NCBI GenBank assembly: GCA_050251055.1
Contig: JBFWNL010000009.1
Location: 32,001-96,000, forward strand
Direction: 5' to 3'
Length of the DNA: 64,000 bases
Source of the DNA: Bacteriovoracia bacterium
GTDB taxonomy: Bacteria > Bdellovibrionota > UBA1018 > JBFWNL01
Part shown: one piece after another, positions 22,090 through 28,830 of the stretch
Layout of the letters: each line of letters begins with the position of its first letter
How positions within the stretch are numbered: the first letter of the stretch is position 1
Translations under genes and position numbers: made by a program
The notes under the pieces: model-generated
The model's input: the letters and a program-made list of their open reading frames with translations, nothing else
Databases searched by the model: none
Told to the model about the DNA's origin: nothing

Positions 22090-22731
22090 TTACTCAAGAA
22101 TCAACACCGCACGCACGGGTCCTGCGTCAAACCCTTTTAACTTGAGGGGAAAAGCACTGAGCACGTAATTGCGGTCGAAATCACGAACCCCGGAGAGGTC
22201 CAGCCCCTCCAATACGGACTGATCATTGCGAAAGAGTGCCTGATGACTCTCTAAGTGCTTCGAGTCGGCGGGGTCGATGGAAGGCGTGTCGATCCCCACC
22301 AGCACGACCCCTTTTTGATGAAGCTCGTCGACGAGTTCGGGAGAAAGCGAGTTGAAATCGGTTCGCCAATTCTGCGGATCGGGGAACGAGCCCGTTCGAA
22401 AGAGCACACGCGGGGCGCGGATCGGCGTTTTCACATCTTTCGGGAGAATACGAGCTCCGGGACCGCACTTCACCTCGACGACCTGGCAAGCCCCGTAATA
22501 GTAATGAAGCGAGCGTTGATCGATCCCCTGCCCGTTTGCATGGTAGTGAATCGGAGCGTCAGCGTGCGCACCGATGTGGCCCGTTGCTTTCAGCGTGGTC
22601 AAATGCAGGTGCGCGCCCCGGTGGATGTCGAGCAAGACCTCGCGCGAGAGCGGCGTATCGCCTGGAAACACCGCGGTCGCTTCCGAGACGAGCGGAGAAA
22701 TATCGATGAATTGCCAGTGCTCCCGTTTCAC
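22090..22731 (-). CDS. kynB: Kynurenine formamidase/arylformamidase (cyclase family)
   Basis: DISP..., FPGD, HIGAHADAPIHY metal motif, GIDTPSIDP, LEGLDL. Confidence 0.88.
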   Translation of the reverse strand: MKREHWQFIDISPLVSEATAVFPGDTPLSREVLLDIHRGAHLHLTTLKATGHIGAHADAPIHYHANGQGIDQRSLHYYYGACQVVEVKCGPGARILPKDVKTPIRAPRVLFRTGSFPDPQNWRTDFNSLSPELVDELHQKGVVLVGIDTPSIDPADSKHLESHQALFRNDQSVLEGLDLSGVRDFDRNYVLSAFPLKLKGFDAGPVRAVLILE

Positions 22732-22735
22732 CCGA

Positions 22736-24139
22736 CTACCCGTTTCTCACGCGGGCCACGACCTTAAACTCCACCGCGATCGGCGTCGGCAGGCTCCCCA
22801 CTTCGATGGTGGTGCGCGTCGCTTGGATCTTGGCGAAGTACTCCGCATAGATCTTATTGTAGGTCGGGAAATCTTGTTTCATGTTCGTCAGGTAGGCCTG
22901 CACATCGATAATGTCGTCAAGTGAACTCCCCGCGGCCTCAAGCACCGCCTTCACGTTGCGGATCACCGAATGAGTCTGCACGGCCACGTCATAGCTCACA
23001 ATATTTCCCTGGCCGTCGAGCTCGACGCCGGGGATCTTTTTCGTGCCTGGTTCGCGCGGTCCCACGCCGGAAAGGAAGATGAAATCGCCTTCACGGCGGG
23101 CATGCGGATAAGCACCGACCGGCTCGGCGGCCGAAGTGGCGTTGATCACCTGGGAATCCGACCGGCTTGAAGACGCGGATGCGGGCTGGGCATCGCCGGA
23201 CCGGGGCGCGGTCTCATTGGCTCCCGCCACGTCGGGCGCCTCTTCCGGCGGCATCGCCTTGCGGGGTTCGATCGCGCGCGTGGGCGTCAGCTGCACCACC
23301 GCTGCTCCCGTACCCCAAACCGGACCGTAGCCGAACACCTTGCCCGTGAAGTCGTTGCTTTCACCGCAAAGACCGCTCAACCACCAGATGCCCTTGAATG
23401 CCATGTCGCCATTGGCTTCACGCGCGAACTCACGCGCCACTTGCGAGACGTCCTCCAGGCGACCTTCCCCCAGCAGTTCACAAATCTTACGGTTCCACTC
23501 GTCGTCTTTTTCGGATGAAATACGATCCTGCTTCGGATCGATATCTTGGATATGAAAGCGATTCGAGAGCGACGAAACCAGCACGACGACCGCGCGTTTG
23601 CCCGCCTGCTTGAGGGCGTGCGCGGCGGCGCGGCCAAGCTCCAGCGTCTCGTCCTTCTCGGCATACATATTACAAGAAACCATCGCGGCCGGGATGCGGT
23701 TCGCCGGATTCAGGAACTTCTGGGCGACGATGGTCCCCGTATCAATGGGAAATCCGCGGTAATTGACCGGCGCGGCGTTATGGCCGAGCTTGCGGACCTC
23801 GTCGGCGTAAATCTTCGCAAACTCGGCGTCGACCTTGAATTGATACGGGAGCGATCCGTACTCGTACCAGTTTTGGTCGACGAGCTCCCACTCGGGCGCC
23901 GGATCGGCCTGAAAGAGGTAGCCGATCACGGAAAGCCATTGGGTGGAATAAAAGAGGATCAGGTCGGCGTCGCTCTTATCGATCTCCTCTTTGAGCTTCA
24001 GATAGGCCGCGCGCAGCTCCGCCCACGCGGGTGACTTTTCCGCCGCCAGGTAAATGTGGGGTAGCCCAGGCACGATCAAAGCCTGCTCGATCACTCCGCC
24101 CACCTTCCCACTCACTTTCCCGGTCTTAGGCGCGCTCAT
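22736..24139 (-). CDS. amnA: Fusion: 2-aminophenol 1,6-dioxygenase alpha subunit (AmnA) + RidA-family 2-aminomuconate deaminase (AmnD-like)
   Basis: N-terminal [47 protein letters not shown]-rich linker; C-terminal [19 protein letters not shown]...[11 protein letters not shown]. Confidence 0.88.
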
Positions 24140-26465: not shown

Positions 26466-27592
26466 ATGCCTCCCACGGGAGTGCGCGCACCCGCCCCGAA
26501 AGTTCCGCCCATGAAATCGGCCGGATTAAATTCCCACTTGTCGCGATCCGGATCCCAGCTATCCCACGCCTGGATGGAGTGCATTCGATCGCGCAGATGC
26601 GGCGGGAGCGTTTCGGCCACGACGAACGGCTTCTGACGCTCAAGCGGATAAGGATTACGGAAGTTGAAACCCAGCACTCCGAGCGTCCAGCGCGCCAGGT
26701 ACCAGCTCGCGCGTGAATCCCAGCCGTGCGCGACCTTGATCACGATCCCTAGGCCCTTTGGGTAATCCGGATGAATCACGGCCAAGCCGAGCAAGCCATC
26801 TGCGCCTTCCTTTGCCAAAACCTTCCCGCCGCAGGACTTCAAGATCGTCGAATCCAGACGATTGAACCCGCCGATGAGGTCGGGATACTCCATCATGGAA
26901 TCCCAGATCCAGTCTTCTTCACGCGTAGTGGCTAAGTGGGCGTACAGGCGGGCGAGTTCGGTCACCGTCATCGAAGCGGTGGGTAGCCCGCAGCCATCTT
27001 TAGAAACGACCCGCGGTTCCCAGCGGGCGCCCAAAACCGTGCGTACGATGCGCAGATAATCCTGGAAAAATTCGTGGTGCGGCCAAACGTAGCCCACGCG
27101 CGACCACCCCTTCAGCTTACAGCCACGCAGAATCGCCGCGTGTTCGCCCGAGCACGGGTGATACCAGCGGCGCGGGCGGCGGCGCTGCTTGCCGAACTGC
27201 ATGAGCGGGAGCGCGAACGGGGTTTGCATCATCCCCAGCTCCCCTTCCGTCAAAATCGAGGTCACCGTGCGCGTGTGCTCCGTGTCGCCGTTATGGGAAG
27301 ACACCGAGATCGCCTTCTGCGGGCCGGTGAGCACCGGCGCAAGCTCCTGGGCGAAGACCTTCATCATGAAGGGTTTCATCATGGAGCGGCCGTAGCAAAG
27401 GACGTCGCCGCCATAGGAATAAATTACCTGATCGCCCGAAACCCACGAGATCGACCCGTGAATCGTGCACTCCGGCACGCCATTGCGGCGGTAATCGACG
27501 AGCGGCACCCAGCTGTTCGCGCCGATCGCATCGGAGTCCAAGATGGCTTGGGCGGAGTCGGAGGCCTTGCCGTTGCCCAGCTTCGTCATCAT
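26462..27592 (-). CDS. Divergent class-3 (Rhizobium AnsA / Asparaginase_II-type) asparaginase homologue
   Basis: RSMMKP (RSxxKP), SHNGDTEH, PCSGEH (normally NCSGKH), DGCGLP, AKEGADG. Confidence 0.8.
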   Translation of the reverse strand: MMTKLGNGKASDSAQAILDSDAIGANSWVPLVDYRRNGVPECTIHGSISWVSGDQVIYSYGGDVLCYGRSMMKPFMMKVFAQELAPVLTGPQKAISVSSHNGDTEHTRTVTSILTEGELGMMQTPFALPLMQFGKQRRRPRRWYHPCSGEHAAILRGCKLKGWSRVGYVWPHHEFFQDYLRIVRTVLGARWEPRVVSKDGCGLPTASMTVTELARLYAHLATTREEDWIWDSMMEYPDLIGGFNRLDSTILKSCGGKVLAKEGADGLLGLAVIHPDYPKGLGIVIKVAHGWDSRASWYLARWTLGVLGFNFRNPYPLERQKPFVVAETLPPHLRDRMHSIQAWDSWDPDRDKWEFNPADFMGGTFGAGARTPVGGM

Positions 27593-28830
27593 TACGCCTG
27601 ACCCCGGACCGACACTTCGGCGGCAATCTGCTCCTGAAACACGCGCATCCGATGCAAAATCTGCGCGTTGTCGTGATTATTGAAATCGAACCAGAGCATG
27701 ACCCGATCACCGGGGTTGAAGCGCGCGCGCATTTGCTCGATGATCGTGCGCGGGTTGCCCGCCAAAGCATTGCCCACCGCGCTCTTCACGCGGGCCGGAT
27801 CGAGCGTGCCTTCCATCGCGCGCCAGTAGTTTTCGATCGCCCGTTGCGCTTCGTTCAAGGCGCGCGCATTCTGCTCGGCCTCCGAAACCCCCGGGTCGTC
27901 GTTGATGAACACCAGCACCGTGCGCGGCATGTGCGCGCGCGTCCACTTCCCGCCCGCGGGGTGAAAAGCGGCTTGCATGCGCTGATGCGTAGCTTCGATT
28001 TCGTGCGCCGGCGTAATCGAGAGGTTAAAAACCCCGCAAGGCAAAATGCGATTGGCTTGAATCTGCGTCTGCGCGTCGTGGGTGCCGAGCACCAGCTTCA
28101 GACGCTCCATTGGCGCCTCGCGCGGGATCACGCCCACCTTTTCAAACGTCCAGAACGGCGGGACGGGAATCTCTGCCATCGAAGCGCCCATACCCGACCC
28201 ATGCGCGGCCTGCACCTTCGCCCAATCTTCGTCGGCACGGAAATCCGCCCGGCGTAAAACTTTGGCCGTCACATCCTCGGAGCTGAAAACCTCACCTTTT
28301 AAAAAACGCAGGAAGATCTCGGTCGCTTCTTGAAAGAGCTTATTGCGCACCACCGGCCAGGCCGCGCGCTCCAAGGCCGAGCGTGGGAGAATGCCATAAG
28401 GCGCGTTCGAAAACGGGAAGCGCCCGGCCGCGAAGCCCAGATGCAGCTCGCGTTTTTCGGCGGGATCCAGCCCATGGTAAGTCATGAACGTTCGCACGGC
28501 CTCGGCGTGCGCGATCGGCCCGCCGTTACAAAGGATGTTGCGGATCGCGGAGCCGACGTGGATCCGCTTCGTGATGCCGAAAACTTTGTGCGCGAGTTGC
28601 AAAATATCGGTGTTGAGGCCGATCTCGCCCTTGAACTGGGGAATCACCGGCGCACGATTTTCTTTTTGTACTTCGCAAGAAAGGTGCGTTTCCGCGACCC
28701 AAGCGGTACCGTAACCCAACTCGTCGGCGAGGCGAACCTGGTCGAAGAAATTACGGAACATGACTGCTTCCGACGGCATGTATCCGTCAACGTCGGTCTG
28801 GCAGATAGAGAAGAAAACGTCGAATTGCAT
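27592..28830 (-). CDS. Luciferase-like (LLM class) flavin-dependent monooxygenase
   Basis: QVRLADELGYGTAWVAETH, TKRIHVGSAI, PIAHAEAV, LHLGFAAG, MRVFQEQI. Confidence 0.88.
   Translation of the reverse strand: MQFDVFFSICQTDVDGYMPSEAVMFRNFFDQVRLADELGYGTAWVAETHLSCEVQKENRAPVIPQFKGEIGLNTDILQLAHKVFGITKRIHVGSAIRNILCNGGPIAHAEAVRTFMTYHGLDPAEKRELHLGFAAGRFPFSNAPYGILPRSALERAAWPVVRNKLFQEATEIFLRFLKGEVFSSEDVTAKVLRRADFRADEDWAKVQAAHGSGMGASMAEIPVPPFWTFEKVGVIPREAPMERLKLVLGTHDAQTQIQANRILPCGVFNLSITPAHEIEATHQRMQAAFHPAGGKWTRAHMPRTVLVFINDDPGVSEAEQNARALNEAQRAIENYWRAMEGTLDPARVKSAVGNALAGNPRTIIEQMRARFNPGDRVMLWFDFNNHDNAQILHRMRVFQEQIAAEVSVRGQA

Follow-up and report, generated by a model that had tools for sequence, protein, structure and literature searches.

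A predicted kynureninase-independent route from kynurenine to 2-aminophenol in Bdellovibrionota and Acidobacteriota

Introduction

How might tryptophan be broken down past kynurenine in a bacterium in whose genome no kynureninase is found? The question is raised by a six-gene operon in a 64,000-nucleotide stretch of DNA from a Bacteriovoracia bacterium (Bdellovibrionota; assembly GCA_050251055.1, contig JBFWNL010000009.1, positions 32,001 to 96,000), which we refer to as the window. The operon joins genes for 2-aminophenol cleavage to a kynurenine formamidase homologue (KynB), a luciferase-like monooxygenase (LLM) and a serine hydrolase of the class 3 asparaginase fold (AsnII). Kynureninase (KynU) is treated as the obligatory side-chain-cleaving step of the well-studied kynurenine pathway. 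Here, the gene set very probably replaces kynurenine 3-monooxygenase (KMO), KynU, 3-hydroxyanthranilate dioxygenase (HAAO) and ACMSD, and thus forms a kynureninase-independent route from kynurenine to 2-aminomuconate semialdehyde. The most economical reading of its chemistry, to which we give a probability of about 0.5, is a widespread tryptophan branch in which LLM oxygenates kynurenine in a Baeyer-Villiger reaction, after which the asparaginase-fold hydrolase releases aspartate and 2-aminophenol. We infer the reaction type of LLM, its substrate (kynurenine or N-formylkynurenine) and the substrate of the hydrolase.

Results

A six-gene operon with a probable 2-aminophenol-cleaving half

The operon runs head to tail and consists of the following genes:

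27592-28830, minus strand: LLM, divergent luciferase-like flavin-dependent monooxygenase, 412 aa
26462-27592, minus strand: AsnII, Asparaginase_II-fold (class 3 asparaginase-like) serine hydrolase, 376 aa
25023-26465, minus strand: AmnC-like 2-aminomuconate 6-semialdehyde dehydrogenase, 480 aa (Pfam Aldedh)
24126-25013, minus strand: AmnB, catalytic beta subunit of 2-aminophenol 1,6-dioxygenase, 295 aa (Pfam LigB)
22736-24139, minus strand: fusion of AmnA (alpha subunit) and RidA (AmnD-like 2-aminomuconate deaminase), 467 aa (Pfam LigB and Ribonuc_L-PSP)
22090-22731, minus strand: KynB-like arylformamidase, 213 aa (Pfam Cyclase)

The LLM stop and the AsnII start share a single nucleotide at 27592 (the sequence there reads TAATG), AsnII and AmnC overlap by 4 nt (26462-26465) and AmnB and AmnA by 14 nt, while gaps of 9 nt and 4 nt separate AmnC from AmnB and AmnA-RidA from KynB, respectively. 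All six open reading frames lie where the initial annotation had placed them, with the same junctions, and its family calls also stand, the Pfam matches being Bac_luciferase, Asparaginase_II, Aldedh, LigB, LigB with Ribonuc_L-PSP, and Cyclase. A promoter and terminator scan gave counts at the level of shuffled sequence (3 versus 2.8; 15 versus 12.8), with none upstream of LLM.

AmnB aligned without gaps over 293 residues with solved structures (8ihg_A, E value 1.1e-129; 3vsg_B, 2.1e-129), and these relatives are enzymes characterised on 2-aminophenol and 2-amino-5-chlorophenol. AmnB is thus close enough to count as a near-orthologue of the solved 2-aminophenol dioxygenases, and 2-aminophenol itself is the probable ring-cleavage substrate. 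In the AmnA-RidA fusion, Pfam places LigB at residues 27-281 and Ribonuc_L-PSP at 336-463; the closest PDB entries are the alpha subunit of 2-aminophenol 1,6-dioxygenase for the first part (7txy_A, 2.9e-64) and 2-aminomuconate deaminase for the second (6izh_A, 1.5e-26). The top seven PDB matches of AmnC are all 2-aminomuconate 6-semialdehyde dehydrogenases (1.8e-155 to 1.9e-148), and the best solved relatives of KynB are kynurenine formamidases (4cog, 3.5e-40). AmnC scored 629.6 bits against its nearest NCBIfam equivalog (TIGR03216, cut-off 693) and KynB 180 bits against TIGR03035 (cut-off 223), both below the cut-off.

The cluster is conserved across two phyla

A scan of one genome per species yielded 255 relatives of LLM, and the best 80 loci of the 255 were kept (labelled L). 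They come from Bdellovibrionota (Pseudobdellovibrionaceae, Bdellovibrionales, Oligoflexia, Bacteriovoracia) and from Acidobacteriota (Thermoanaerobaculia, Holophagae, Sulfidibacter). Genes downstream of LLM were counted in the 44 loci with at least 7 kb on that side, and genes upstream in the 63 loci with at least 2 kb. AmnC lies downstream in all 44 loci, AsnII in 41, AmnB in 40, AmnA in 38 and KynB in 14, and the first four occur together in 38/44. Chance would be very far from producing such an arrangement. Two gene orders are seen repeatedly, LLM-AsnII-AmnC-AmnB-AmnA(RidA)-(KynB) and LLM-AmnC-AmnB-AmnA-AsnII-RidA, and AsnII adjoins LLM or AmnBA in nearly all loci.

Six loci of the 44 are exceptions. 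Two of them (L078, L082) stop at a contig edge, one (L032) is without explanation and three (L007, L011, L052) are split. When the LLM locus lacks both AsnII and AmnB, as in the split loci and in L061 and L065, two shorter loci outside the 44, a second cluster of the order AmnB-AmnA-AsnII is found elsewhere in each of the five genomes searched (5/5). The chromosome of Sulfidibacter corallicola, a cultivable carrier, has the gene set divided between two loci. The co-occurrence check suggested in the initial annotation thus gave the predicted outcome: LLM and AsnII are conserved with amnAB and amnC (38/44 loci), with kynB (all 40 LLM genomes of the survey described below) and often with kynA.

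LLM is linked to tryptophan and excludes kynureninase

Tryptophan 2,3-dioxygenase (TDO) is encoded directly upstream of LLM, on the same strand, in 10/63 loci. A divergent LLM subgroup (35-47% identity) is likewise embedded among TDO, KynB, AsnII and amn genes; the order is LLM-AsnII-KynB-TDO in L095, and in L096 TDO lies 2 kb beyond the operon.

We then surveyed an even sample of 251 genomes of Bdellovibrionota, the phylum of the window. LLM was found in 40 genomes, kynureninase in 55 (54 over the cut-off), TDO in 164, KynB in 95 and an AsnII-family gene in 69. LLM and kynureninase never occurred together (0/251). All 40 LLM genomes carry TDO, KynB and an AsnII-family gene, and TDO and KynB accompany kynureninase in 54/55 and 52/55 genomes, respectively; KynB without either LLM or kynureninase was found in just three genomes. 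The exclusion also holds within single families, with 13 LLM and 15 kynU genomes among 34 in family f17, 8 and 4 among 16 in f24, and 2 and 2 among 26 in f20. Among 231 genomes of Acidobacteriota, LLM is present in nine (two of them degraded) and kynU over the cut-off in 36, a count that includes genome G279, with no overlap. The expectation that LLM would occur without kynU is therefore borne out in both phyla (kynU in 0/40 and 0/9 LLM genomes). Standalone AsnII orthologues of the main type are present in 23/23 main-type LLM genomes and in 0/46 fusion-free kynU genomes, where merely two weak paralogue matches were found. This distribution fits a hydrolase needed by the LLM route.

In the window itself, kynU, KMO and HAAO had been reported as not visible, and this extends to the whole genome, which is 93.5% complete. 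No kynureninase was detected there with a model that matched other genomes as a control, and no HAAO with a model that matched 5/5 kynureninase-type genomes. A KMO-type class A hydroxylase was not found in the genome either, FAD_binding_3 matching only N-terminal nucleotide-binding motifs.

A separate KynB clade in LLM genomes, which would have indicated 2-formamidophenol as the KynB substrate and N-formylkynurenine as that of LLM, was considered and rejected, as there was no visible split: LLM genomes show 46-61% identity to the window KynB and kynU genomes 44-59%, and values of 50-61% are reached across the two genome types. KynB therefore does not show whether its own step or that of LLM comes first.

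LLM and kynureninase modules are exchanged in otherwise syntenic operons

In family f17, the LLM-type operon of L096 reads AmnB-AmnA-RidA-AmnC-FAAH-FAAH-LLM-AsnII::KynB, and the kynureninase-type operon of L100 reads RidA-AmnC-FAAH-FAAH-HAAO-ACMSD-kynU-AsnII::KynB. The two types are syntenic except for the middle module. {LLM, AmnA, AmnB} and {kynU, HAAO, ACMSD} are thus alternative modules between kynurenine and 2-aminomuconate semialdehyde, and KMO presumably belongs to the latter. This positional swap is the strongest single argument for LLM acting on kynurenine or its formyl derivative.

Both operon types contain fusions of AsnII to KynB. The fusion proteins, of 505-555 aa, occur in families f17 and f27, in LLM-type and kynureninase-type genomes alike, and hint that the two domains catalyse consecutive steps. 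Their coordinates are as follows:

L094:13906-15525, AsnII::KynB
L096:10134-11732, AsnII::KynB
L097:13545-15179, AsnII::KynB
L100:6214-7815, AsnII::KynB, translationally coupled to kynU
L101:1187-2764, AsnII::KynB
L102:5612-7201, AsnII::KynB
L103:4581-6164, AsnII::KynB
L104:4612-6279, AsnII::KynB

A 27-row tree of the AsnII domain groups the kynU-type genus g41 within the LLM type with support of 93/93. The basal positions of genera g97 and g79 are not resolved in it and every outgroup row is of the LLM type, so that the direction of the swap is not settled; the tree is compatible with one to three replacements of LLM by kynU.

LLM has a luciferase-like fold and AsnII a conserved Ser-Lys active site

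The match of LLM to Pfam Bac_luciferase (PF00296) scored 37.9 bits (cut-off 27.9) and covers only residues 3-113, the N-terminal third. An AlphaFold model built on 21 sequences (mean confidence, pLDDT, 92.5) showed an LLM TIM barrel of the LuxA/SsuD type. A Foldseek search with this model returned 97 PDB chains at E <= 0.001, and the matches listed are all LLM-family enzymes. The nearest folds are luciferases, RslO1, 3,6-diketocamphane monooxygenase, MsnO8, RutA, SsuD and F420 enzymes, with TM scores of about 0.5-0.63 and 13-17% identity; for luciferases, RslO1, 3,6-diketocamphane monooxygenase, RutA and SsuD, TM is about 0.6 at 14-17% identity. Type II Baeyer-Villiger enzymes belong to the LLM family, and one of them, 3,6-diketocamphane monooxygenase (4uwm_A), ranks 23rd in this search (14% identity, TM 0.60), with luciferases, RutA and SsuD equally near. 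More than 3000 close homologues at about 60-68% identity were found in a protein collection clustered at 90%. Among 1.84 billion 50%-cluster representatives, 295 were reached at E 1e-3 and ordinary LLMs were out of reach. Judged from these searches, the LLM clade is large but isolated.

Three further observations concern the LLM family. P0126 (1501 aa) joins an LLM of the same clade to GATase and ApbE (flavin transferase) domains and may be a true fusion or a gene-calling artefact. In the ESM Atlas, clusters near-identical to LLM in features and structure are labelled mostly archaeal (Thermoplasmatota, Methanobacteriota), and the family or the route may extend to archaea. In two Acidobacteriota, LLM looks broken, being split in two (G325:C32:80605-81705) or reduced to a 67-residue fragment (G311:C43:217480-217680).

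AsnII matched PF06089 with 161 bits and the structures of the Rhizobium etli class 3 enzymes ReAIV and ReAV with E values of 3e-15 and 1.5e-8. R69-S70-x-x-K73, S99, H151, D199-G200 and K261 are invariant across 21 orthologues and align with the two Ser-Lys tandems of ReAV/ReAIV (Ser48-Lys51 and Ser80-Lys263 in ReAV). In ReAV, Ser48 is the nucleophile, and L-asparagine is anchored by its alpha-amino and alpha-carboxy groups at a zinc ion whose ligands are two Cys and one Lys (PMC12951835). The corresponding site of the window protein is Cys-Glu-Cys (CSGEHA, DGCG) instead of Cys-Lys-Cys; one subgroup has Ser/His/Asp at this site and the KynB-fused subgroup retains Cys/Lys/Cys. AsnII therefore resembles an active Ser-Lys hydrolase that has kept its hold on an alpha-amino acid, and its genomic context suggests a beta-aspartyl aryl substrate rather than free asparagine.

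Standalone Asparaginase_II paralogues of about 340 aa form another set in the phylum, with weaker matches (E 1e-23 to 1e-46) and an occurrence independent of LLM and kynU. They appear as second matches in G111, G217, G170, G238 and G069 and in about 18 genomes of f20 and other families, and may be ordinary class 3 asparaginases of the phylum.

Neighbouring genes

Two more pathway genes, absent from the list in the initial annotation, lie in the window 3.5 kb from the operon:

32320-33114, plus strand: DmpE/AmnF-like 2-oxopent-4-enoate hydratase, 264 aa (TIGR03220, 313 bits, cut-off 408.8; FAA_hydrolase)
33117-33899, plus strand: DmpH/AmnE-like 4-oxalocrotonate (2-oxo-3-hexenedioate) decarboxylase, 260 aa (TIGR03218, 241.6 bits, cut-off 350.55)

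Orthologues of this pair are directly divergent from TDO-LLM in L017, L018, L041, L044 and L078, and lie within the operons of L096, L097 and L100-L102. A DmpG-type aldolase was searched for in the window's genome and not found. Between the LLM operon and the pair, the window has a 559-aa protein (28924-30603, minus strand) and a 198-aa protein (31633-32229, plus strand), both without a family match, on either side of a TIGR02147-family protein (DUF4423; 30681-31502, minus strand). In the closest relatives, the five loci with the divergent arrangement, TDO occupies this intervening position.

Convergent with the DmpH-like gene is a gene for a protein resembling flavin-containing monooxygenases (FMO; 33910-35247, minus strand; PF00743, 222 bits). 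This class B monooxygenase was considered as a rival oxygenase and rejected, since no homologue was present in the loci fetched by then. It bears a stretch of the FxGxxxHxxxYK type, which we take to mark FMOs rather than Baeyer-Villiger monooxygenases (BVMOs), and is probably unrelated to the pathway. On the other side of the operon, a GGDEF diguanylate cyclase gene (20801-22069, minus strand) begins 20 nt downstream of kynB. A sigma-70-like site, TTGATT-16-TATAAT (10/12), lies at 22104-22077, inside the end of kynB, and may serve the GGDEF gene as a separate promoter. Farther away, a homologue of the LexA repressor (LexA_DNA_bind and Peptidase_S24) is encoded at 18317-18997 on the minus strand.

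Upstream of LLM, a short-chain dehydrogenase/reductase (SDR) gene lies directly adjacent on the same strand in 34/63 loci and often overlaps the LLM start (e.g., L066:4745-5527). We rejected the SDR as a core member, because its presence in only 34/63 loci and the lack of an orthologue in the window's genome indicate that it is not essential. A reductive fate for 2-aminomuconate is one possibility for its role; a 2026 bioRxiv preprint reportedly concerns ASPDH as a 2-aminomuconate reductase. A FadL/TodX-type outer membrane porin gene lies upstream of LLM in 21 loci, among them loci of Thermoanaerobaculia (e.g., L027, L030, L042, L056). In this class, two conserved proteins of about 190 and 441 aa without a family match precede the LLM operon; for the protein of about 190 aa, neither Pfam nor NCBIfam gave a match. 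In the Acidobacteriota survey, the kynureninase matches of G418, G293, G396, G256 and G479 lie in open frames of 757-803 aa, which suggests that kynureninase is fused to another domain there.

Discussion

Proposed route

Kynurenine can yield 2-aminophenol only if oxygen enters next to the amino-bearing carbon and the acyl chain leaves. In the route that we propose, TDO (encoded elsewhere in the genome) and KynB would convert tryptophan into kynurenine. LLM, supplied with reduced flavin and O2, would form a peroxyflavin that attacks the aryl ketone, so that oxygen is inserted between the aryl ring and the side-chain carbonyl. Aryl migration would give the 2-aminophenyl beta-ester of aspartate, which might undergo an O-to-N acyl shift to N4-(2-hydroxyphenyl)asparagine. 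The Ser-Lys hydrolase AsnII, holding the alpha-amino acid end as class 3 asparaginases do, would cleave either compound to L-aspartate and 2-aminophenol; its relatives form a beta-aspartyl-enzyme with asparagine. AmnBA would then open the ring, AmnC would oxidise the semialdehyde and the fused RidA domain would deaminate 2-aminomuconate; the nearby DmpH/DmpE-like pair could carry the breakdown further. Alternatively, LLM may act on N-formylkynurenine, with KynB working after the hydrolase on 2-formamidophenol.

Evidence against the proposed route

Several observations weigh against this proposal, and the most serious comes from the fusions. Nine kynureninase-type genomes, all of f17, carry AsnII::KynB. 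Five of these fusions were aligned (three more were added for the tree, and the ninth, G156, is in neither set), and every catalytic residue is retained in 5/5. The same five genomes have no LLM at E 1e-3 (0/5) and no AmnB (0/5), and HAAO in 5/5. Decay of AsnII as a passenger was considered and rejected: besides the intact catalytic residues, the ratio of AsnII to KynB identity is 0.71-0.87 in kynU-type fusions versus 0.72-0.98 in LLM-type ones. Since AsnII is intact in these LLM-free genomes, the fused domain has a job there that is independent of LLM. Of the interpretation offered in the initial annotation, the kynureninase-independent tryptophan route ending in aminophenol cleavage has good support from co-occurrence and from the exclusion of kynU. 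These nine fusions (five searched, no LLM) speak against a hydrolase strictly coupled to LLM.

The LLM protein itself also counts here. It has no match among PDB sequences at E 0.01. The model establishes the fold; no relative narrows down the reaction type, since luciferases, monooxygenases for sulfonates and pyrimidines, and F420 enzymes are all structural neighbours at equal distance. There is no flavin reductase gene within the operon; a single Flavin_Reduct gene lies elsewhere in the genome. The link to tryptophan has weak points as well. In the window's genome, TDO is on another contig and not adjacent to the operon. Seventy genomes of the phylum carry TDO without LLM or kynU, and TDO by itself is therefore a weak marker. 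Because members of one family are related, the exclusion counts look more independent than they are; Acidobacteriota offer only a small replicate, with about 1.4 overlaps of LLM and kynU expected by chance. Finally, the upstream SDR is matched in the window's genome only by paralogues at 24-32% identity, and the FadL/TodX-type porin would also fit an exogenous hydrophobic aromatic substrate.

Alternative explanations

The strongest alternative, which we consider improbable, is that LLM alone gives 2-aminophenol and aspartate, the labile ester being hydrolysed spontaneously or by an unspecific esterase, and that the role of AsnII is tied to KynB or to a shared side product. It draws on the intact AsnII::KynB fusions of LLM-free kynureninase-type genomes, which show no relaxed constraint, and on the fusion itself, which suggests a functional tie of AsnII with the formamidase. 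However, the distribution of standalone AsnII (23/23 main-type LLM genomes versus 0/46 fusion-free kynU genomes) is too one-sided for a shared role, the gene adjoins LLM or AmnBA nearly everywhere, and the classical route is not known to include an amide or ester.

It is less probable still that LLM is a kynurenine 3-hydroxylase, i.e., a KMO analogue, and AsnII a C-C hydrolase acting on 3-hydroxykynurenine in a retro-Friedel-Crafts reaction via a beta-aspartyl-enzyme. New chemistry would then be required of both enzymes, while the Baeyer-Villiger route asks for no more than new substrates; to our knowledge, aromatic hydroxylation is unusual for LLM enzymes, and we know of no C-C hydrolysis by the AsnII fold. 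The fusions in kynureninase-type genomes would also be left unexplained. On the other hand, this scheme accounts for the same genes, the same products (L-aspartate and 2-aminophenol) and the same phyletic pattern, a KMO-type hydroxylase was not found in the window's genome, and cleavage of aryl ketones by a serine hydrolase has a precedent in 2,6-dihydroxypseudooxynicotine hydrolase.

In a third scheme, LLM would hydroxylate C3, AmnAB would cleave 3-hydroxykynurenine, and AsnII, instead of ACMSD, would deacylate the ring-fission product to aspartate and 2-aminomuconate semialdehyde. AsnII does go with AmnB-AmnA and not with LLM in the split genomes, and it follows the dioxygenase in the order LLM-AmnC-AmnB-AmnA-AsnII-RidA. 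We nevertheless regard this scheme as very improbable, because the gap-free alignment of AmnB over 293 residues with enzymes for 2-aminophenol and 2-amino-5-chlorophenol indicates a small substrate, and because it has as little precedent as the C-C hydrolase. The phenol oxygen would derive from O2 in the Baeyer-Villiger route and in both C3-hydroxylation schemes alike.

Just as improbable is an operon for an exogenous aromatic compound, e.g., an aminoaryl ketone such as 2-aminoacetophenone or an aminophenol conjugate, to which TDO and KynB would be linked only secondarily: degraders of nitrobenzene and aminophenol are known to carry amn genes, the porin lies upstream in 21 loci and TDO is unlinked in the window, but all 40 LLM genomes carry TDO and KynB and none carries kynU, both genes lie inside the operon in many loci (KynB even fused to AsnII), LLM holds the operon position of kynU, and AsnII keeps its amino-acid-anchoring site.

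Relation to known systems

The classical pathway from kynurenine to 2-aminomuconate shares with the cluster the entry steps (TDO, KynB) and the semialdehyde dehydrogenase, RidA-type deaminase, decarboxylase and hydratase, and the f17 operons of the two types are syntenic. In the middle steps, the classical pathway uses KMO, KynU, HAAO and ACMSD, whereas LLM, AsnII and AmnAB stand here. The by-product would be aspartate instead of alanine and CO2, and no quinolinate precursor would be formed. AmnB, AmnA, AmnC and the RidA-type deaminase are closely related to those of the 2-aminophenol meta-cleavage pathway (amnBACD, cnbC, nbz). Unlike in that pathway, they are associated here with TDO, KynB and two additional enzymes, AmnA and the deaminase form one fusion protein, and the genes occur in predatory and proteolytic lineages (Bdellovibrionota, Thermoanaerobaculia), where we propose that the aminophenol comes from an amino acid and not from a xenobiotic.

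The proposed logic, from aryl ketone via aryl ester to phenol and acid, is the same as in the pathway of 4-hydroxyacetophenone monooxygenase and an aryl esterase; that monooxygenase is a class B flavoprotein and not an LLM. The camphor type II BVMO 3,6-diketocamphane monooxygenase has the same fold as LLM (TM 0.60), but only 14% identity. AsnII shares its Pfam family, fold, Ser-Lys tandems and two of three metal ligands with the class 3 L-asparaginases ReAV and ReAIV and differs from ReAV in having Glu in place of the metal-binding Lys; the relationship is distant (E 3e-15, 1.5e-8). Full-text literature searching, with most subscription journals outside its coverage, returned no paper linking kynurenine to 2-aminophenol via a Baeyer-Villiger or LLM enzyme. 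The enzyme families and the entry and exit of the pathway are all known, and two enzyme activities are predicted to be new.

Significance

If the proposed route is correct, the amn pathway gains a natural substrate, which would explain aminophenol-cleavage genes in organisms that never meet nitroaromatics, and the class 3 asparaginase fold gains its first non-asparagine substrate. The carbonyl carbon would be saved as aspartate and not lost as CO2. A single LLM activity would annotate a clade of more than 3000 members without a characterised relative. Scoring of tryptophan catabolism in genomes and metagenomes would change, because carriers of the operon are currently read as stopping at kynurenine. 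The route would represent a second solution to the kynureninase step, with carriers among Bdellovibrionota (40/251 genomes sampled) and also among Acidobacteriota, and inside one bacterial family it and the kynureninase route would repeatedly have taken each other's place.

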